IMG/VR virus record: IMGVR_UViG_2687453623_000005
DNA length: 39,782 nucleotides
Strand: one strand, 5' to 3'
Source: a virus
Taxonomy: Duplodnaviria > Heunggongvirae > Uroviricota > Caudoviricetes
Both the position numbers and the translations under genes were made by a program. The notes beneath the pieces are model-generated. The model was not told where the DNA came from. It saw nothing but the letters and a program-made list of their open reading frames with translations, and searched no databases. Shown one piece after another: positions 8,982 to 30,670 of the stretch. Positions within the stretch are counted from its first letter, which is position 1. Every line of letters starts with the position of its first letter.

Positions 8982-9941
8982 ATGAAAATTTGTATCGACG
9001 ACGGCTCCACCAACATCAAGCTGGCATGGACTGAGAATGGCGAACGCCGCAACGCCATCAGCCCGAACAGCTTCAAGTCGGAATGGTCTGCGCCGTTCGG
9101 TGGCATGCAGCCCGCGAACTACATGCTTGATGGCGTGCGCTATGGTTTTGATCCGGTTAGCGATCGCTTTGTCCAGACGACCGACACGCAATACCAGTAC
9201 AGCGATGTGAATGTAATCGCCATTCATCACGCGCTGGTCAAATCAGGCATCACGCCACAGGAGGTGGATGTGGTTGTCACCCTGCCACTGAGCGAGTATT
9301 TCGACACAAACGCACAGCCGGACATGGCCAACATCAACCGCAAAAAAGCGAACGTTATGCGCCCGGTGGAATACCAGAACGGCGAAGCATTCACTATCCG
9401 TAACGTGCGGGTTATGCCTGAATCCATTCCGGCTGGCTTTAAAGCACTGGCTGACATGAGTCCGTTTGAATCCCTGCTGATTGTGGATTTAGGCGGAACC
9501 ACGCTGGATGTGGCAAAGGTTCAAGGGCAACTGGCAGGTATCAGCCAGGTGTTTTGCGATCCACACGTAGGCGTTTCCCTGATGGCCGATGCCGTACTGT
9601 CGGTGATGGCCACTAACGGTATGCGCACCAGTCACCACATCGCCAATACCATTATCGAACATCGCCATGATGAAGCCTGGCTGCGCCAGCACATCCACAA
9701 TGACGCGCATTACGCCAGCCTGATGGCGGTTATTCGTGAAAAGGAAGAAACACTGAAACAACGCGTGATCCGCGCGCTGGCGGTTTTTTCGGGTTACGGG
9801 CGGGTGATGGTTGTCGGTGGAGGGGCGGAGATTGTGGCACCCGCTATCCGCGAAGTCTGCGGAGTTAATGCGACTTTCATCGCGGACGGGGTGCCACAGT
9901 TTGCTCTGGTTAATGGGCTGTACGCAATGGACAAGGAGTAA
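8982..9941 (+). CDS. parM: ParM/StbA-like actin-type segregation ATPase, 319 aa
   Basis: N-terminus MKICIDDGSTNIKLAW and later IVDLGGTTLD and VVGGGAE motifs align with plasmid R1 ParM as I recall it. Confidence 0.8.
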   Translation: MKICIDDGSTNIKLAWTENGERRNAISPNSFKSEWSAPFGGMQPANYMLDGVRYGFDPVSDRFVQTTDTQYQYSDVNVIAIHHALVKSGITPQEVDVVVTLPLSEYFDTNAQPDMANINRKKANVMRPVEYQNGEAFTIRNVRVMPESIPAGFKALADMSPFESLLIVDLGGTTLDVAKVQGQLAGISQVFCDPHVGVSLMADAVLSVMATNGMRTSHHIANTIIEHRHDEAWLRQHIHNDAHYASLMAVIREKEETLKQRVIRALAVFSGYGRVMVVGGGAEIVAPAIREVCGVNATFIADGVPQFALVNGLYAMDKE

Positions 9942-9945
9942 ACCA

Positions 9946-10260
9946 ATGACGACACCAACCAGACGGATAAGTTTCTATCTGAAGCCCGCCGCCGTCAAGA
10001 GTGAACAGGAGGCGTGCAATTACCTCGATAGCCTGCCAGCCTCCGAACGCAGCCGCGCGCAACGCGCGGCCTTTCTGGCTGGGCTAGCGCTCATAAAGCG
10101 CAACCCAGCATTTGCCTACTGGATGGCCGAATGGCCAGAGGACAACCTCCCCTTCAATACCGTTAGCATCAAGGAAACATACCAGGATAATCAGCCTAGC
10201 GGAGTTGAATGCAATTTTTATAAAATAAAAAAGAATATTCAGACCTTATTCCCAGAATAA
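9946..10260 (+). CDS. parR: ParR-like centromere-binding adaptor, 104 aa
   Basis: N-terminal segment ISFYLKPAAV...LDSLPASERSRAQRAAFLAGLAL resembles R1 ParR. ATG at 9946 with AGGAG ribosome-binding site. Confidence 0.7.
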   Translation: MTTPTRRISFYLKPAAVKSEQEACNYLDSLPASERSRAQRAAFLAGLALIKRNPAFAYWMAEWPEDNLPFNTVSIKETYQDNQPSGVECNFYKIKKNIQTLFPE

Positions 10261-10343
10261 TCTGATAATTGTATGTGAACTAATAAAATACAGACCAACA
10301 CATCATTCTGGCACCCTTGCTAACAGGGTGCCAATGTTTCAAA

Positions 10344-11186
10344 TCATGATGAAATTGCCGAAGTTTTTTTATCGTGCTGAAGTACCGCAAATGCCATTAA
10401 AACCTCAAGAGAATAGCGGCGATAATACTTAACAAAACCATAATAAAATACTCGGGATGCAGCAATACAAAACAAGAGAAGAAAACAAAAAGGTAACAGT
10501 CTGATATTTATATCTATTAAAAAGGATAGAAGGAGCAGGAACATAAGCAACCAGACTGAAGCGAGAAAAACAAATGTAATGTTTCTACAAAAACCATACA
10601 AAGCAACATAGTTTTGCATTTTCACCTGATGATTTTTAGAATGTTCATACACATAATGATAAGCAAGGCGAAAAAGATCGCCCCTCAAGCCCTTACGTCG
10701 ATATAGCGTAGATACAGAAAAAACATTTATATAACCATCTCGTATTTGCGGCCAAAAGACTTTAATAAGTATAGAATGCAGTGTGGTTTTATGATGTTCT
10801 GCTTTATCAAAAGCTGATACAGGAAATAAAAAAACTCCACGAATAAAATTAACTATACTGAACTTAGTATTATGTCGTTTTATTTTCAGGGAGCTTCTTT
10901 TAGAAAACAGATAAATTGAAGGATACCCAAGTTTACTGTTCATGTATTTTTCAATTAAACAGGATGATAGAATAGATATGAAGTGACCTGAAATATATGA
11001 TAGAACGATTAATACCACATATATAAATACACTTATTATTTCTTTATATTTCAGGATATGGTTAAGAATACCTTCTATATAAACAGGGTTAATTTCAATA
11101 GAAAACAAAAAAAGGATAAACAGGAATAACCCACCTGGAATTAGATAGCCCAAAAAGTCATAAAATGAAAACGGATTCTGTGTCAC
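10344..11186 (-). CDS. Polytopic membrane protein, 280 aa, unknown function, very AT-rich
   Basis: Multiple hydrophobic segments. GTG start preceded by GGGGGA. Downstream gene of a two-gene minus-strand operon. Confidence 0.6.
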   Translation of the reverse strand: MTQNPFSFYDFLGYLIPGGLFLFILFLFSIEINPVYIEGILNHILKYKEIISVFIYVVLIVLSYISGHFISILSSCLIEKYMNSKLGYPSIYLFSKRSSLKIKRHNTKFSIVNFIRGVFLFPVSAFDKAEHHKTTLHSILIKVFWPQIRDGYINVFSVSTLYRRKGLRGDLFRLAYHYVYEHSKNHQVKMQNYVALYGFCRNITFVFLASVWLLMFLLLLSFLIDINIRLLPFCFLLLFCIAASRVFYYGFVKYYRRYSLEVLMAFAVLQHDKKTSAISS

Positions 11187-11225
11187 ACTTCCCCCTGTGT
11201 TACTTGTAAATTAAAGGGTAAAACA

Positions 11226-11723
11226 TTATTTGTTTTTCCGTAAAGGATTAGCTTTCCATCTTCTTACTAACCATTCGAATTCTTGATATGTAGTATCCGA
11301 ATTAATGCTTTCTCTGATTGCTTTAATTAATGGCTCGGCAATATCATATGTCTCTACAACTGTTGTGTAAGATGTTCTTTTTATCATTTTTTCATCATAA
11401 ATACCTTCACGAATACTTACAGCAACTCGCTCGTAAAAATTTAAAATATATTGAAATTTTCGACGCTCGGCCATTTCTTCATCTGTTATTATGCAACCAT
11501 CACAAGGAAAAACATAAGAACGAAATGATTTGCCTGAACGATGCACTTGTTTCAGGGTATGCAATGACTCTATATATTGCATATCTTGCCGACTCTCAAA
11601 AAGAAAGTTGGCCGTTTGAGTTTTTTTTGCGGTACGCACATTGTAGATAATGGTTCCAATGGCAACCAAAACGCCAAGCAGAACAATAGCATTGCTGATG
11701 ATTTGTAGTGTTATTGGGTTCAT
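11226..11723 (-). CDS. Single-pass membrane protein, 165 aa: N-terminal TM helix plus soluble domain, unknown function
   Basis: N-terminus ITLQIISNAIVLLGVLVAIGTIIY is hydrophobic. Upstream gene of the operon. Confidence 0.6.
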   Translation of the reverse strand: MNPITLQIISNAIVLLGVLVAIGTIIYNVRTAKKTQTANFLFESRQDMQYIESLHTLKQVHRSGKSFRSYVFPCDGCIITDEEMAERRKFQYILNFYERVAVSIREGIYDEKMIKRTSYTTVVETYDIAEPLIKAIRESINSDTTYQEFEWLVRRWKANPLRKNK

Positions 11724-11743
11724 CCTATTTCATCCATAAAAAA

Positions 11744-11764
11744 GGCGGGGAGCAAATCCCCGCC
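11744..11764 (-). terminator. Hairpin GGCGGGGA-N5-TCCCCGCC with T-run on the minus strand; alternatively part of the cos region
   Basis: Seen directly. Partial resemblance to the G-rich P2/186 cohesive-end sequence. Confidence 0.35.
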
Positions 11765-11920
11765 TCATTAGAGGTCAACGTAGCTTAGAAACCATCAAAT
11801 TCATCATACATTTTTTTCATATCAACCCCCTCATAGAAATCATAACCACGTTTTGTGGTTTTTGTGACGTATAAACTACATCAAAGGCAAGCCACGGTCA
11901 AATATATAGGCATGCTTACC

Positions 11921-12019
11921 TGCACAAAAGTGCACAAATTTGCACAATTTTTTTGAACGACTTTTTACCCTTCCGGCCCGCATGGCGGCTGGATCCGTCA
12001 AGGATCCGTGCGTGCACAA
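11921..12019. repeat. Phased TGCACAA repeats (11921, 11931, 11941, 12013) plus a GGATCCGT direct repeat (11991, 12002)
   Basis: Seen directly; three copies at exact 10-bp spacing in a 700 bp non-coding stretch. Confidence 0.5.
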
Positions 12020-16797: not shown

Positions 16798-17850
16798 ATG
16801 AATCTGGTGATGTCAGATATTACCCGCAACAAGCTGGGTTGCTATATGGCGCAGCAGGCGTCGCTTAACAATATCCCGGTATCTGCACTGGTATCGCGAT
16901 TTACCGTGGAACCCGCGGTGCAGCAGCGTTTTGAAAACGCCTCAAAGGAAAGTACCGAATTTACGAAAAGAATTAACGTGATCGGCGTGACCGACCAGAA
17001 AGGCGAAAAAATCCTCCTGGACACCACCGGGCCAATTGCGCGCACGAATAGCAGTTATGACGGCATCAAACGCCGTAACCCGAATAACGTGATCGATATG
17101 AAGTCTCGTCAGTACCAGTGCGAACAGGTGAACTACGATACCTTTATTTCGTACCCACAGCTTGATACCTGGGCGGCCCACAGCGATTTTCAGTCCCGTA
17201 TCAGTACACAGATCGCCCGGCAGGTAGCGCTTGATCGCATCATGATTGGCTTTAACGGCACATCCCACGCCTACGAGTCTGATTTTCACACCAACAAGCT
17301 GCTTCAGGACGTTAACGTGGGCTGGCTGGAGCACATCAGAACCGATGCCAGCGAGCGCGTAATGAATGACGTGACGCTGACCTCCCGCAACATGGACAAC
17401 ACTGTGGCGCACGCGGGTAAGTATGCGAATGCCGATGCTCTGGTACAGGATGCGCGCTCATCCCTGCTGGATGAATGGCACAAGGAAGCTGACGACCTCG
17501 CGGTGATTATGGGGCGCAACCTGTTTAACTCGCTGCGTCTGCCCGTGCTGAACAGCATCAGCGGCCAGAATCCCAATGCGGAATTACTTGCCGGGCAGCT
17601 CATCCTGTCATCGCGCACCATTGGCGGGCTGGGCGTGTTCCTTGCGCCGTTCTTCCCGGATGCAACGATGCTTATCACCTCGTTCAACAACCTGTCGATT
17701 TACTGGCAGAAAGGTTCAATGCGTCGCCTGATGAAAGACGAGCCGGAATACAACCGCATCGCCACCTACCAGTCCATCAATGACGCTTATGTCGTTGAAG
17801 ACTATGGCAAGTGCGCGATGGTCACTGGCCTGAAGTTCGCCGACAGCTAA
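16798..17850 (+). CDS. N: Major capsid protein, P2 gpN-like, 350 aa
   Basis: FTVEP and NLSIY motifs match P2 gpN as recalled. Confidence 0.9.
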   Translation: MNLVMSDITRNKLGCYMAQQASLNNIPVSALVSRFTVEPAVQQRFENASKESTEFTKRINVIGVTDQKGEKILLDTTGPIARTNSSYDGIKRRNPNNVIDMKSRQYQCEQVNYDTFISYPQLDTWAAHSDFQSRISTQIARQVALDRIMIGFNGTSHAYESDFHTNKLLQDVNVGWLEHIRTDASERVMNDVTLTSRNMDNTVAHAGKYANADALVQDARSSLLDEWHKEADDLAVIMGRNLFNSLRLPVLNSISGQNPNAELLAGQLILSSRTIGGLGVFLAPFFPDATMLITSFNNLSIYWQKGSMRRLMKDEPEYNRIATYQSINDAYVVEDYGKCAMVTGLKFADS

Positions 17851-20206: not shown

Positions 20207-20598
20207 AGCTCTGGCCCACGCTTGGCGTCGCTTTCCTTCTGATTACATCCATGCGTCTGTCGTGGTCGCTGGGCCGGGAGAACGCCAGAAACGAAGCGCA
20301 GGCCAGCACCCTGAAAAGTACCGTCGACACACTGAATATCATCAGCGCCGGGGTACAGGATATGCAGCAGGTGCTGGCTCAGCTCCGCGCGGAAAATCAG
20401 CAACGCAATCAGGACGGAGAGGTAAGACGTGAACAGCTACGCAACGATATTGCAAAAGATGAATGCGCCCACGCTTTGCCTGACGCTCGTTTTACTGACA
20501 GGTTGCGCAGGCACGCAGAACGCGCCAGGGCCAGCGCCGTCAGTCCGGCTTATACCGCAGACGCTGACCATGCCGGTAACGCCTCCCCCCTTCCCTGA
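20203..20598 (+). CDS. Inner-membrane spanin (LysB/Rz-like)
   Basis: N-terminal TM helix followed by a coiled-coil-like region; ATGA overlap with endolysin stop. Confidence 0.65.
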   Translation: MKLWPTLGVAFLLITSMRLSWSLGRENARNEAQASTLKSTVDTLNIISAGVQDMQQVLAQLRAENQQRNQDGEVRREQLRNDIAKDECAHALPDARFTDRLRRHAERARASAVSPAYTADADHAGNASPLP

Positions 20599-20740
20599 CC
20601 CACCCACATGGGGAAACCTCGGAATATGGGGCGACCGCCTTCTGGATGCACTGGAAACCTGTAACGCGGATAAACGGGCCATTGCTGAACTGGATAAGAG
20701 AATAGCCGAACTGACACACCAGACGGGAGTAACACAATGA
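20459..20740 (+). CDS. Outer-membrane lipoprotein spanin (LysC/Rz1-like), embedded in and extending past the i-spanin gene
   Basis: Lipobox LLTGC after a signal peptide; proline-rich segment PVTPPPFPDPP. Confidence 0.65.
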   Translation: MNAPTLCLTLVLLTGCAGTQNAPGPAPSVRLIPQTLTMPVTPPPFPDPPTWGNLGIWGDRLLDALETCNADKRAIAELDKRIAELTHQTGVTQ

Positions 20741-22614
20741 CCAGTAAGAACTTTGCACTGATTACAGCCATGACACAGGCTGAACTGACTCAAAAGGTGA
20801 ATGAACATCTTGCGAAAGGGTGGCATCTTCAGGGGGAGACGCGGGTTGCCTACGAACCCGGCACCCCGTGGTATCTAATGCAGGCAATGGTGGCCGATGG
20901 CACTACAGACATCTCACCTGATTCCCCCCAGCACGGCAGCGTGCCGGAGTGGTATTACGTGGTGGTACTTGCTGGTCAATCCAATGCCATGTCATATGGT
21001 GAGGGAATGCCGCTGCCGGATTCTTACGATGCGCCCCACCCACGCATTAAGCAACTGGCCCGTCGCAACACAGTGACTCCCGGTGGTAAAGCATGCGCAT
21101 TTAACGACATCATTCCGGCAGACCACTGCCTGCATGATGTTCAGGATATGAGCGCACTGAATCACCCGAATGCAGACCTGAGCAAAGGGCAGTATGGCTG
21201 TGTCGGACAGGGCTTGCATATTGCCAAACGCCTGTTGCCTTACATTCCACAGAATGCCGGGATTTTACTGGTTCCATGCTGTCGTGGTGGTTCGGCATTC
21301 ACCCAGGGCGCGGAGGGGACATTCAGCGAGTCCACAGGAGCCAGTCAGGATTCGGCTCGCTGGGGTGTGGGTAAACCTTTATATCAGGACCTGATTTTGC
21401 GCACGAAGGCCGCATTGCAGAAAAACCCAAAAAACATGCTGCTGGCCGTATGCTGGATGCAGGGCGAATTTGACATGAGCGCCGCTACGTACTCACAGCA
21501 ACCTCCGCTGTTTACGGCCATGCTGAAACAGTTTCGTGCGGACATTACCGAGTTTAACACGCAGTGTCATGGAGGCAGAGCGGCAAGTGTGCCATGGATT
21601 TGTGGTGACACGACGTATTACTGGAAAAACACCTACGGCACGCAGTACGACACCATTTACGGGGCGTACAAAAACAGGGAGAGCGACAACGTTTTCTTTG
21701 TGCCGTTCCTGACCGATGGTAGTGGCAACAATACCTCCACCAACGCACCAACGGAAGATCCGGATGCTGCAAGTGAGGGATATTACGGTTCGGCATCCCG
21801 AACGAACAAAAACTGGGTATCATCAAATCGCCAGACGCATTTCAGCTCATGGGCGCGTCGTGGCATTATTCCCGATCGTATGGCAACCGCTATTCTGAAC
21901 GTAGCCGGTCGCACCTTAGCCTTCATCAGTGGTAAGGCACCGGAAATCAAACCCTCGCCCGGCGGCGACACGCCATCGGGGCCGTCTGAAGATGCATCCG
22001 TACGCACAATCTCCCTGTTGCCGACAGCCGGAGATGCTGCTGCGCAGGGCTGGAGCATTAAGAATGGCGGAATTCAGTTGTCAGAGGGTGTATTTAAGAT
22101 CACCAAGCAGAGCAATAAAGCCTGGTCCCTGACGCGCCCGGTGGATGACGCAGTCTCCCTGCTGACACGGGGTGGCAGACTGAGCTGTAAGTTTCGACTG
22201 TCAGGCGCACTGACCAACAATCAGTTCGGTCTGGGAATTTATCTGTATACCGATGTAGCGTTACCTGACGTCGTGGCGATGACCGGGACTGGTAACCCGT
22301 TCCTGATGTCGTTCTTCACCCAGACCACAGACGGCAAACTGAATCTGATGCATCACAAGAAAGCAGGAAACACAAAGTTGGGCGAGTTCGGGAATTACAG
22401 TAACGACTGGCAGACGCTGGAGCTGGTGTTCACCGCCGGCAGTGCCACGGTTACTCCGAAACTGAATGGAGTGGCTGGCCCGGCATTCCAGGTCATAAAA
22501 GACAGTCTGACACTGGGGCTGAATGCGCTGACGTTAACTGATATCACTAAAAATGCCGCGTACGGCGTCGATATCGGCAGCCTGGTGCTGGAAATCAATA
22601 ATCCCGCAGCATAA
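20737..22614 (+). CDS. DUF1737 + SASA-domain sialate O-acetylesterase (NanS-p-like moron), 625 aa
   Basis: VVVLAGQSNAMSYGEG matches the GQSNM esterase motif. N-terminal 50 aa resemble DUF1737. Confidence 0.75.
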   Translation: MTSKNFALITAMTQAELTQKVNEHLAKGWHLQGETRVAYEPGTPWYLMQAMVADGTTDISPDSPQHGSVPEWYYVVVLAGQSNAMSYGEGMPLPDSYDAPHPRIKQLARRNTVTPGGKACAFNDIIPADHCLHDVQDMSALNHPNADLSKGQYGCVGQGLHIAKRLLPYIPQNAGILLVPCCRGGSAFTQGAEGTFSESTGASQDSARWGVGKPLYQDLILRTKAALQKNPKNMLLAVCWMQGEFDMSAATYSQQPPLFTAMLKQFRADITEFNTQCHGGRAASVPWICGDTTYYWKNTYGTQYDTIYGAYKNRESDNVFFVPFLTDGSGNNTSTNAPTEDPDAASEGYYGSASRTNKNWVSSNRQTHFSSWARRGIIPDRMATAILNVAGRTLAFISGKAPEIKPSPGGDTPSGPSEDASVRTISLLPTAGDAAAQGWSIKNGGIQLSEGVFKITKQSNKAWSLTRPVDDAVSLLTRGGRLSCKFRLSGALTNNQFGLGIYLYTDVALPDVVAMTGTGNPFLMSFFTQTTDGKLNLMHHKKAGNTKLGEFGNYSNDWQTLELVFTAGSATVTPKLNGVAGPAFQVIKDSLTLGLNALTLTDITKNAAYGVDIGSLVLEINNPAA

Positions 22615-22637
22615 GGAAGAGCAGGAGAGCAAAACAG

Positions 22638-23105
22638 ATGCTTAAGACAAACAGTCTGCGAGAGTCCATGCTTCATGGGTGTCGGTGGTGCCAGGCTAAT
22701 CCCGAGAAATTCACCATTTTCGTGGAGAGCGGCAACATTGAAACGACCGGAGAAGCGCCCTCGTTTGTTTACCGCTATCAGATGGTGATGTTTGTCATGG
22801 ATTACGCCGGAGAGCTGGACGACCTCACGCTGCCGCTGCTGGCGTGGTTATCCGAAAATCAGCCACAGTTGTTGCTCAATCCGGAGCGTAATCAGGACAT
22901 CAAATTTTCTGCCGTTATCAATGACGATGACAGCGCCGATCTCCTGTTTACGCTCCCCCTGCGGGAACGCGTTCGCATCACGCGCAACAGTCAGGGCACA
23001 CCGCAGGCAGAACACCTGCCGGAGCCAAAACCCCGTCTGCCTTCTTCCGAAGGCGACTGGTCGCATGTATTCCAGGATGTGACGTGGGGTGAAAGCGATG
23101 GATAA
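22638..23105 (+). CDS. R: Tail completion protein, P2 gpR-like
   Basis: MLK..SLR N-terminus and LAWL.ENQP motif resemble P2 gpR. Confidence 0.8.
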   Translation: MLKTNSLRESMLHGCRWCQANPEKFTIFVESGNIETTGEAPSFVYRYQMVMFVMDYAGELDDLTLPLLAWLSENQPQLLLNPERNQDIKFSAVINDDDSADLLFTLPLRERVRITRNSQGTPQAEHLPEPKPRLPSSEGDWSHVFQDVTWGESDG

Positions 23106-28071: not shown

Positions 28072-28604
28072 ATGATGCACTTAAAAAACATTACTGCTGG
28101 CAACCCTAAAACAAAAGAGCAATACCAGCTAACAAAGCAATTTAACATCAAATGGCTTTATTCAGCTGATGGAAAAAACTGGTATGAGGAACAAAAGAAT
28201 TTCCAGCCAGACACTTTGAAAATGGTCTATGACCATAACGGCGTTATTATTTGTATTGAAAAGGATGTTTCAGCAATTAATCCGGAAGGCGCAAGCGTCG
28301 TTGAATTACCTGATATTACAGCAAATCGCCGGGCTGATATTTCGGGGAAATGGATGTTCAAAGATGGCGTAGTGGTAAAGCGAACTTATACCGAGGAAGA
28401 GCAGAGCAACAAGCGGAAAATGAAAAGCAGAGCCTGTTGCAACTTGTCAGGGATAAAACTCAGCTATGGGACTCACAGCTACGGCTGGGCATCATTTCCG
28501 ACGAGAATAAACAAAAATTAACCGAGTGGATGCTCTATGCGCAGAAAGTCGAATCCACAGACACCTCCAGCCTGCCAGTAACATTTCCCGAACAACCTGA
28601 ATGA
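28072..28604 (+). CDS. G: Tail fibre assembly protein (Tfa/gpG-like), interrupted by an apparent -1 frameshift near 28395..28410
   Basis: Track ORFs 28072..28521 and 28350..28604 together reproduce a full Tfa, judged by comparison with the minus-strand copy. Confidence 0.7.
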
Positions 28605-28632
28605 GACAAGGCCCGATAACGGGCCTTAATTT

Positions 28633-29159
28633 TTATTCAGGCTTTTGTGGCCATTCAGGATTTGCCGTATCCACACGGTTGACCAGAACACTGTAGCGTT
28701 CCCATGCTTCCAGTCGTGTGCGTTCCTCGTCTGTTGCCATATTCAGCCTGACAGCGCGTTCCAGCGGCTGGATGACTGATTCAGCTTCGGAAAGCAATGC
28801 GGCCTTTTGTGATTCGGCCTGTTGTTGCTGTTCGTCAGCCGTATAAATCCGTTTAACCACAGCTCCGTCCTTAAACATCCACTTACCGGAATCATCGGTC
28901 CGACGATTGGCCGTTATATCGGGAACCTCGACGACGCTAAAACCTTCGGGATTAAGCGTGGAGGCATCTCTGGTGATGGCGACAATAATATTATTTTCAT
29001 CGTAAACAATCTTTATGGTGTCTGGCTGAAAGTTTTTCACTTCCTCATACCAGTTTTTTCCGTCCTCAGAGTAAAGCCAGATAACTCCGTGTTTCTTTGT
29101 TAACTCATACTGTTCAGTGTTTTAGCATTACCCGCTTTTATGTTCTTTAAGTGCATCAT
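28633..29159 (-). pseudogene. Alternative tail fibre assembly gene (tfa'), frameshifted near its 5' end
   Basis: Reverse strand begins [14 protein letters not shown], then a stop; the out-of-frame continuation matches the plus-strand Tfa. Confidence 0.6.
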
Positions 29160-29990
29160 ATTAATCGCTCTTTTACAGTGCATTATATACTTTGAACGGT
29201 CTGTAATAAACACCCGCTATATTATCGCAGAGTTAGACCCTGTATCCTGAACATTAATACCAGACAATACATGACTGAAGGCACTGGAAATTCCATGTTC
29301 GCCAGTTGTTCACTCCATAATATTGCTGTAACCAAGTCGAACATCTTTCACATAACGGAATCAAACCGTAATCGAGATTAACACGCCCGTAATATGTCTA
29401 TACGAATGCCGGGACAGCGCATTCCATGTACTGAACAGCATGAACAGTACCGCCAAGAGCGAATACCTGTAATACAACCTGAGTTCACCATTCATTGTAC
29501 CAGCAGATAACGCAGTGCACCAACATCTCCTGCTGAAGGTTTTCTGGTGGTGGTGTAAAATTCGGACCAGTCGCTTTCAAAACCATAACCATCACGGGCT
29601 GAACGATAAAAAATACCGCCATTTTTATAATTAATCCGAAACTGAGCTGCAGGACAACTTCCGTCTCCATATAAAAATGAATAATTAACGTTGATGCACC
29701 ACCAATATTTGCGTTATAGGCTCCGCTACTCCAGTTCCATCCAACTGCTTTATCACCATTAACGGTGCTTCCTGTTTTCCTAAGGCAAACGCACCAACAT
29801 GACTTGCTTTTAATGTGATATCGGAGGAACCATCAAAAGCCACATTGCTTATTTTCCTGGCAGTTTTTAATTTTGCAGCTGTAGAAGCATTGCCGGATAG
29901 TTCACCAGAAAGGCCACCGCTGAATGTTTGTCGATTAGTCCAGGTATTCGCTGTACTGAGTAACGGTATTTTCTCCCCGCTTGTGCCGAG
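29160..29990 (-). pseudogene. Alternative tail-fibre C-terminal variable region (H'), disrupted by at least two frameshifts
   Basis: Reverse-strand translation matches the plus-strand H C-terminus in three different frames. Only a 61-aa ORF (29485..29670) survives. Confidence 0.5.
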
Positions 29991-30070
29991 TTCTCGTAAA
30001 CCGAGGTTTTAAATAATGGCCGTTTCTGGCCTGCATGGCATGATTTGCGCTTTTGGACGGGAGATTCAGT

Positions 30071-30670
30071 GTGCTGATTGGCTATGTAAGGGTATCAACA
30101 AATGACCAGAATACAGACCTGCAACGAAACGCTCTTGTTTGTGCAGGATGTGAACAAATATTTGAAGATAAATTAAGCGGGACAAAGACAGACCGACCGG
30201 GATTAAAACGCGCTTTAAAGCGCCTTCAAAAAGGTGACACGCTGGTTGTCTGGAAACTGGATCGCCTCGGGCGAAGCATGAAACATCTGATTTCTCTCGT
30301 CGGGGAACTACGGGAGCGAGGGATTAATTTTCGCAGTCTGACCGACAGCATAGACACATCTTCTCCAATGGGGCGTTTTTTCTTCCACGTGATGGGTGCC
30401 CTGGCTGAAATGGAACGTGAATTAATTGTTGAACGTACACTGGCCGGGCTGGCGGCAGCGCGCGCAAGGGGGCGCACAGGCGGACGTCGACCGAAGCTGA
30501 CAAAAGAACAGCATGAGCAAATAGCAAGGCTAATCAAAAACGGGCACGACAGAAAACAACTGGCAATAATTTACGGCATTGGCACATCGACGATTTATCG
30601 TTATCACCCTGTAGGCGATATACAGACTGAAGAAACAACCGGGCAGACTCAGGAAAATGAAAACCGCTAA
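30071..30670 (+). CDS. Serine recombinase, DNA invertase of the Gin/Pin/Cin/Hin family (GTG at 30071; track ORF starts at TTG 30053)
   Basis: LIGYVRVSTNDQNTDLQRNAL...LVVWKLDRLGRSMKHL is near-identical to Mu Gin and e14 Pin as recalled. Confidence 0.95.
   Translation: MLIGYVRVSTNDQNTDLQRNALVCAGCEQIFEDKLSGTKTDRPGLKRALKRLQKGDTLVVWKLDRLGRSMKHLISLVGELRERGINFRSLTDSIDTSSPMGRFFFHVMGALAEMERELIVERTLAGLAAARARGRTGGRRPKLTKEQHEQIARLIKNGHDRKQLAIIYGIGTSTIYRYHPVGDIQTEETTGQTQENENR

Follow-up and report, generated by a model that had tools for sequence, protein, structure and literature searches.

The DNA analysed here, the 39,782-nucleotide (nt) stretch of IMG/VR record IMGVR_UViG_2687453623_000005 (hereafter the window), is essentially one P2-family prophage whose integration site lies between serS and the dmsABC region, and it carries on the + strand, at positions 20737-22614, a gene for a 625-residue esterase of the NanS-p family. 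The gene reads as a member of the late O-type operon (O-N-M-L-X-holin-endolysin-spanins-esterase-R-S), and its sequence makes it a chimera, in which a P2-type DUF1737 N-terminus is joined to an esterase and lectin part of the lambdoid 434/JLK-2012 type. We put the probability of the NanS-p identity, together with the logic of late-operon expression, at about 0.8; a role of the DUF1737 end as an anchor on the virion is proposed more tentatively. Neither the chimera nor this possible anchor role had appeared in the earlier note on this DNA, which described a sialate O-acetylesterase moron inserted behind the lysis cassette.

The open reading frame (ORF) of the esterase is intact from the ATG at 20737 to the stop codon at 22612-22614, and the GQSNAM motif lies at residues 80-85. 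Three Pfam domains were found in the protein, all of them above the curated cut-offs: DUF1737 (PF08410) at residues 4-53 with 28.8 bits (cut-off 24), SASA (PF03629) at residues 75-271 with 44.3 bits (cut-off 24.8) and DUF6645 (PF20350) at residues 476-586 with 70.2 bits. The ORF and the Pfam matches thus confirm the 625-residue protein with a DUF1737-like N-terminus and a GQSNAM motif that the earlier note had described, and the domain search that it had proposed recovers both SASA and DUF1737. A match to PHROG 143 spans the full length of the protein (accession WP_000202148), and a scan against NCBIfam gave no match. Among structures in the PDB, E. coli NanS/YjhS (3PT5) matches residues 69-388 (E=1.7e-125), and the crystallised C-terminal domain of a NanS-p protein (6YP6) matches residues 430-622 (E=1.7e-29).

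An AlphaFold2 model built on 76 homologues, with a mean predicted local distance difference test score (pLDDT) of 72.9, shows an N-terminal strand-helix-strand-strand domain at residues 5-53 (strands 5-11, 30-38 and 46-53; helix 14-26), an alpha/beta core and a C-terminal beta-sandwich, which are joined by two disordered linkers (residues 56-68 and 399-421, pLDDT <50). Along the + strand, the gene can therefore be divided into five parts. The N-terminal DUF1737 domain (residues 1-58, 20737-20910), delimited by Pfam, the model and its identity classes, is of the P2-type class and is a candidate capsid-docking module. A Ser/Pro-rich linker 1 that is predicted to be disordered (residues 59-69, 20911-20943) leads to the SGNH/SASA esterase core (residues 70-390, 20944-21906), which is placed by the 3PT5 match and by the invariant columns of its catalytic blocks. 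Linker 2, rich in Pro, Ser and Gly and likewise predicted to be disordered (residues 391-429, 21907-22023), leads to the lectin-like beta-sandwich of the DUF6645 domain (residues 430-625, 22024-22611), which is placed by the 6YP6 match and is all-beta in the model with a pLDDT of ~82-91. A NanS-homologous SASA/SGNH domain with its SGNH blocks, a DUF1737 domain, a lectin-like C-terminus and a location in the late region are all present, and by these features the window protein is a member of the NanS-p family.

The same DUF1737-SASA/SGNH-DUF6645 order is found in the lambdoid NanS-p proteins, such as L0105/Z1466 of 933W and vb_24B_21 (gp84) of phi24B, which also have in common with the window protein the catalytic blocks, a late-gene context and the lack of an obvious signal peptide. 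K-12 NanS (YjhS, 3PT5), in contrast, is a 326-residue single-domain protein encoded in the nanCMS operon, without DUF1737 and the lectin domain, but the SGNH core of the window protein is 57% identical to it over ~320 residues and all block residues are conserved. In an alignment of the window protein with K-12 NanS and four lambdoid NanS-p proteins, S82, N83, G184, Q242, G243, E244, R365 and H368 are invariant. The last SGNH block of the window esterase is RQTH (R365-x-x-H368), and the lambdoid proteins likewise have R-x-x-H at this place. Throughout the NanS/NanS-p family, enzymes of proven activity included, R-x-x-H replaces D-x-x-H as the last block, with the variants RSSH, RASH and RPTH (PMC10462455). 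The absence of a catalytic Ser-His-Asp arrangement had been named as a point that would speak against an esterase. The Ser and His of this arrangement stand, as Ser82 and His368 are conserved, whereas the Asp was mis-specified; because R-x-x-H is family-wide, the arrangement is properly read as the presence of Ser and His, and both are found.

NanS-p homologues de-acetylate 5-N-acetyl-9-O-acetylneuraminic acid (Neu5,9Ac2) and mucin-bound sialic acids, and they support growth on Neu5,9Ac2 (PMC8065619, PMC5923452). Several points call for caution in carrying this activity over to the window esterase. We infer the substrate from homologues whose cores share 57% (NanS) to 86% (lambdoid NanS-p) identity with that of the window esterase, and stretches of the catalytic core are modelled at low confidence. 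In addition, the proposed carbohydrate site of the phi24B C-terminal domain has four aromatic residues, of which three are retained as F497, Y502 and F527, two of them with a Tyr-to-Phe change; the fourth is L593. These substitutions suggest that the binding specificity of the lectin site may differ.

The genes upstream of the esterase encode gpL, gpX, a holin, an M15 endolysin, an Rz-like spanin and LysC, and those downstream encode gpR and gpS, followed by V, W and J. The Rz1-like o-spanin gene lysC (20429-20740, + strand; PF23793) lies inside the Rz-like gene and is annotated in RefSeq on an identical genome, where its start is at ~20480. Its TGA stop codon (20738-20740) is overlapped by the esterase ATG (20737-20739), giving ATGA at 20737-20740, and a GGGAG Shine-Dalgarno sequence (20725-20729, + strand) lies 7 nt 5' of this ATG. 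At the other end, 23 nt separate the esterase gene from the start codon of the tail completion gene R (22638-23105, + strand; PF06891, E=1.4e-38). A consensus-based scan found 3 promoter-like sites, compared with 4.7 expected by chance from shuffled sequence, and the single site near the esterase ends past its start codon. The same scan found no + strand terminator 3' of the esterase, the terminator-like matches not exceeding the shuffled expectation. The ATGA overlap, the Shine-Dalgarno sequence, the 23-nt gap and the lack of a promoter or terminator above chance indicate an internal member of the late operon rather than an autonomous moron, and this part of the earlier note is not upheld. 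The counterpart operon of P2 is annotated from O to S, with a terminator after S, and P2 lysC (8202-8492) overlaps R (8455-8922) directly with no gene between them; the observation that the place between the spanin genes and R has no counterpart in P2 was therefore correct. Lambdoid nanS-p genes lie instead between Q/stx and the holin gene S, in phages that are unlike the P2-family myovirus of the window. That the window gene is away from this canonical lambdoid position is a feature of its context and not of the protein.

The prophage resembles P88, which is classified as Xuanwuvirus, family Peduoviridae. In P88 and seven other sequenced relatives the site is empty, and lysC runs straight into R. 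Alignments of the window with an empty site (CREC_5) and with a second filled site show that homology between filled and empty sites is lost within the 3' end of lysC at ~20684 and regained within the 5' end of R at ~22700. The segment that separates filled from empty P88-like phages is thus a mosaic (20684-22700, + strand) of a divergent lysC 3' end, the esterase gene and a divergent gpR 5' end. The G+C content of the esterase gene (0.54-0.57) is equal to that of the neighbouring genes, so composition does not point to a recent foreign insertion.

We surveyed the site in 5,426 complete E. coli genomes. With a junction-spanning query at >=80% coverage, the filled site was found in 372 genomes, and the empty P88-type junction was found in 689. 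DNA of the esterase N-terminus is present in 375 genomes, 366 of them at >=99% identity. The esterase is thus carried by ~7% of complete E. coli genomes and at ~1/3 of P88-type junctions, and the lysC-esterase-R arrangement is common, so that the description of it as unusual in the earlier note is not upheld. The carriers include EC958 and other O25b:H4-ST131 strains, O26, O103:H2 and the O104:H4 outbreak lineage.

These data bear on the view that the esterase is purely a lysogenic-conversion moron, an autonomous gene that only gives the lysogen access to O-acetylated sialic acids and whose DUF1737 domain has no role in the virion. We consider this possible but short of an even chance. The gene is optional, as the 689 empty and 372 filled genomes show and as isolated phages such as P88 do without it; nanS-p alleles let enterohaemorrhagic E. 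coli grow on Neu5,9Ac2, and the recombinant enzymes de-acetylate mucin (PMC8065619, PMC5923452). However, the start codon of the esterase is coupled to the lysC stop and the gene shows no promoter or terminator signal above chance, so no expression is expected from a repressed prophage.

The domains of the esterase differ in their affinities. DNA similarity of the gene to lambdoid alleles begins only at nt 207. Compared with the lambdoid proteins of JLK-2012 and 434, the window protein is 31-33% identical in the N-terminus (residues 1-58), 85-86% in the core (residues 70-390), 90% in linker 2 and 87% in the C-terminus (residues 430-625). Compared with the P2-like proteins of P0072, P0039, P0058 and P0088, the corresponding values are 47-62%, 67-71%, 31-49% and 37-65%. 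The identity of the window DUF1737 domain to lambdoid versions overall is 21-36%, and its esterase and lectin parts share 85-90% identity with the 434, H-19B and JLK-2012 type and 38-67% with the 933W/VT2-Sakai type. From these domain-wise identities, the N-terminal part goes with the type of phage that carries the gene, and exchange between phage types involves the catalytic and lectin parts. In the phage collection, a tblastn query of the N-terminal 71 residues matched only three P2-like phage records, and the P2-type DUF1737 class was found only in P2-like contexts; against a large protein database the same query recovered only fragments of the same gene and was thus uninformative on distant relatives. 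In P0072, P0039, P0058 and P0088 the esterase has the same architecture, the same N-terminal class (motif ITAM...SEPGxPWYLMQ) and the same place (lysis cassette, esterase, usually a DUF1378 ORF, gpR), but the backbones differ from that of the window in a lysozyme-type endolysin and in a 364-370-residue P2-family capsid protein that is ~60% identical to the window's. An N-terminus that is bound to the phage type and joined to an exchanged catalytic part would not be expected of a domain without a phage-specific role, which argues against the pure moron.

Other N-terminal parts are also found on the esterase/lectin module. In the Mu-like prophage P0115 the module carries a ~110-residue N-terminus that is not DUF1737 and lies beside tail-fibre and invertase genes, in P0084 it is fused to a prophage tail-fibre N-terminus (PF08400) in a protein of 917 residues, and P0002 encodes a 752-residue form with a tail Collar domain. 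In most of the sampled lambdoid, Mu-like and other P2-like contexts the esterase is followed on its 3' side by a DUF1378 ORF of 50-60 residues, and sometimes then by a DUF826 ORF. The window esterase differs from the lambdoid contexts in that neither ORF follows it, and the DUF1378 ORF is also absent at one other P2-like locus (L037).

A possible phage-specific role is suggested by phi24B, in which gp84, a NanS-p protein, is a virion protein (bioRxiv 10.64898/2026.04.10.717836, preprint April 2026), a finding that also speaks against the pure moron. The DUF1737 domain of gp84 consists of one helix and three antiparallel strands with a Tyr42 anchor, a hexamer of this domain is lodged in the central pore of the facet-centre hexons of the T=9 capsid, and the remainder of gp84 is cleaved off after release (bioRxiv 10.64898/2026.04.10.717836). 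The window domain is homologous to that of gp84 and has the same predicted fold, which suggests that the N-terminus of the window esterase is an anchor for a P2-type capsid. The exterior of the gpN hexamer is known to accept a decoration protein, Psu of P4 (PMC7552001), whose fold is unrelated to DUF1737. By analogy with gp84, the DUF1737 domain may also tether the esterase to the P2-type capsid, although we hold this only tentatively.

Comparison of four filled with six empty P88-like phages over ~6.5 kilobases (kb) shows that the fixed differences are confined to two patches, the capsid gene N and the esterase flanks, with almost none elsewhere. There are 48 fixed nucleotide differences in N, 30 in the 3' end of lysC and 26 in the 5' end of R, compared with 6 in M, 2 in the Rz-like gene and 0 in O, L, X, the holin and endolysin genes, S, V, W and J. 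In the capsid proteins of filled and empty phages, all 12 listed fixed amino acid positions fall in residues 40-164 (16915-17289, + strand), the N-arm/E-loop/spine-helix region of the major capsid protein, and the proteins are ~100% identical outside it. The capsid patch, with ~11% amino acid divergence, is sharply bounded and occurs as two allele classes among ~1,060 P88-like prophages.

The two classes are sharply bimodal: the filled-type capsid patch matches 371 records at >=99%, 5 at 95-99% and ~703 at 80-95%. These numbers resemble the 372 filled and 689 empty sites, a correspondence of counts and not a complete per-genome table. The control gene L, which lies between the two patches, shows instead a continuous spectrum, with 319, 576 and 155 records in the three identity bands, and the L gene of the filled genome 1070/13 (95.2%) is farther from the window than that of the empty genome UTI89 (95.8%). 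In the phage collection, 3/3 filled records carry the patch at 100%, and 13/13 empty records match it at 88-89%. The presence of the esterase therefore tracks the capsid patch across ~3 kb of recombining DNA, and a tie to a capsid-gene allele is a further point against the pure moron. These results led us to propose, again with less than even confidence, that the DUF1737 end is an anchor matched to the gpN capsid and, in P88-like phages, co-adapted with capsid patch 40-164; recombination would swap the enzyme and lectin payload between phage families and leave the anchor with its capsid. Whether or not it is linked to the esterase, the capsid patch may be a product of diversifying selection at the capsid surface, with capsid-sensing defence systems as one conceivable cause.

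A number of observations weigh against such an anchor. The T=7 P2-type capsid has no facet-centre hexon, which in the T=9 capsid of phi24B is the sole binding place of gp84. The anchor-loop sequence of the window domain differs from that of gp84, and phi24B Tyr42 aligns with Thr43 in the window protein, with Y39, W45 and Y46 nearby. On the gpN domain map (PMC7552001), residues 40-164 form the N-arm, E-loop and spine helix and not the A-domain apex or pore. The P2-like capsids of lineages B and C carry the filled-type state at 4/12 patch positions, and their patch identity is nearly equal to both types (65% vs 66%). In addition, internal double crossovers leave flanking markers joined, so the association could be a remnant of shared ancestry. 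Among lambdoid phages, the DUF1737 class AITPYTLMQ occurs with two capsid families, namely the lambda gpE/gpD heads of 434 and PhiR12_2 and the S78-HK97 fusion heads of JLK-2012 and P0101. A one-to-one relation between DUF1737 class and capsid family in lambdoid phages, which we had considered, is ruled out by this class. A single capsid family was seen for the 933W class (P22-type portal and capsid_3) and for the SYDDNGMKF class (ClpP-capsid fusion).

If the whole association were such a remnant, the esterase could be a neutral hitch-hiker, in which the patch association and the N-terminal class reflect only the shared ancestry of one successful lineage and bring no benefit. Both patches could derive from a single ancestor, and the position of the capsid patch away from the hexon pore and the states of lineages B and C would fit this view. 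We nevertheless consider it improbable, because the reading frame is unbroken and alleles with 9-47% divergence still have the catalytic residues, the N-terminal DNA is nearly invariant among the carrier genomes surveyed above, and the carriers span distant E. coli lineages (ST131, O104:H4, O26 and O103). The esterase is also kept at the same locus in four diverged P2-like lineages, and frameshifted copies appear exceptional. One such inactivated copy does exist, a frameshifted filled-site allele annotated in strain 2015C-4498 (L003:3438-5317).

Under the late-operon reading, the esterase would be made only once the late genes are switched on, that is, during lytic growth. Because the protein has no obvious signal peptide, it would accumulate in the cytoplasm and leave the cell at phage lysis. 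Outside the cell, the SGNH core would strip O-acetyl groups from Neu5,9Ac2-type sialic acids on mucin glycans, with the C-terminal lectin-like domain guiding the enzyme on these glycans, and surviving sibling lysogens would gain usable sialic acid. An extra step may be added by analogy with gp84 of phi24B, in which DUF1737 would dock on the exterior of the P2-type capsid and at least some of the enzyme would travel with the virion. P2-family prophages are classically poorly inducible. This weighs against a large effect, since the lysis-borne benefit to the lysogen population could then be small.

An aid to infection would be another use of such an enzyme, which, whether free or bound to the virion, would then de-acetylate O-antigen, capsule or another host polysaccharide for access to the receptor, with mucin not the main target. 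The idea has been raised for NanS-p (PMC8065619), the window esterase sits among virion genes, and the fusion to a tail-fibre N-terminus in P0084 and the location at the tail-fibre end of the Mu-like prophage P0115 would fit it. Yet NanS, to which the core is closest, is a dedicated sialate esterase, the tested homologues act on sialic acids, and the phage functions without the gene, as in P88. We therefore think an infection aid quite unlikely and favour the release of a mucin-directed sialate esterase at lysis.

The exact sequence of the window esterase was found on at least 999 contigs, which, with the 372 filled sites and the O104:H4 allele in the same context, points to a gene that is maintained. 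The O104:H4 allele has the same arrangement and encodes a protein 91% identical to the window esterase; residues 1-88 and 480-625 are identical, and all differences are central. The central part also differs by ~11-13% among P88-like alleles (L032:3997-5877 compared with 20737-22614). Identical ends around a divergent middle fit a history in which lambdoid nanS-p paralogues resident in the same genome converted the central part. Five nanS-like places are seen in C227-11 and in other outbreak genomes, and five is also the number of nanS-p alleles that Saile et al. in 2018 reportedly described in C227-11.

Of 353 records in the phage collection that encode a homologue, 350 are lambdoid or Stx phages and the other three are P2-like. 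The three P2-like records (PV468777.1, ON470599.1 and ON470623.1) all end inside the esterase gene, and ON470599 is a partial contig-derived prophage that consists of a chromosomal flank and the left prophage half. Breaks of short-read assemblies in this multi-copy gene have thus probably hidden the P2-like version from phage databases, and the collection holds no complete example. In a pattern-limited scan of one genome per species, the full three-domain form was found only in Escherichia (E. albertii and another Escherichia species), and single-domain NanS-like genes were found in Proteus, Edwardsiella, E. ruysiae and Shigella. In a literature search on NanS-p in prophages, P2-like phages, DUF1737 and the protein accession, none of the papers found mentions the P2-family context. 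The NanS-p family itself is already known, and close alleles lie in heavily studied strains.

In extra-intestinal and commensal lineages (ST131, O104:H4, O26 and O103), the NanS-p enzyme is thus common on P2-family prophages as well, and gene counts restricted to lambdoid phages miss these copies. If the DUF1737 end does anchor the enzyme to the capsid, its role would move away from feeding the lysogen and towards equipping the phage particle to modify mucus, and filled and empty P88-like phages would form a natural, genetically tractable pair for the co-evolution of a decoration protein and its capsid. NanS-p proteins would then be more than metabolic morons: in podo-, sipho- and myovirus prophages of E. 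coli alike, they would form a modular family of enzymes that act on mucus glycans and are displayed on the virion. With its chimeric candidate anchor and the association with the capsid gene, the window esterase makes a recent structural discovery testable in a second, tractable phage family.

The host prophage has the P2-type head/lysis/tail order, with gpN, gpL, gpX, gpR and gpS. Apart from the tail-fibre genes, all P88 morphogenesis genes have full-length counterparts in the window, free of stop codons, at 71-100% amino acid identity, and this identity is >=93% except for a short gene downstream of E. Because the annotation of strain 4/1-1 flags gpD and gpM, a defective prophage had been suspected, but this was rejected because both ORFs are intact and of full length in the window. 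By the state of these genes, the prophage is a structurally intact P88-like (Xuanwuvirus, P2-family) phage. Only the first 453 residues of the window tail fibre align with that of P88. An invertible tail-fibre segment at ~28300-30620 contains a DNA invertase gene and, on the opposite strand, alternative fibre and fibre-assembly genes, and the tblastn match of the alternative fibre-assembly copy contains two stop codons.

The immunity region of the window also differs from that of P88. The integrase, repressor C and Cox (window 28-1969) are 49%, 38% and 29% identical to those of P88, and the window prophage is therefore heteroimmune to P88. At window 8982-10257, the ParM-type segregation ATPase is 99% identical to that of P88, and its partner partition protein is 52% identical. 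Between the partition genes and the portal gene, at window ~10300-12000, lies an island with a G+C content of 0.31-0.41 and two minus-strand ORFs (one hypothetical, one DUF4760), a position that is a typical cargo/defence hotspot of P2-family phages.

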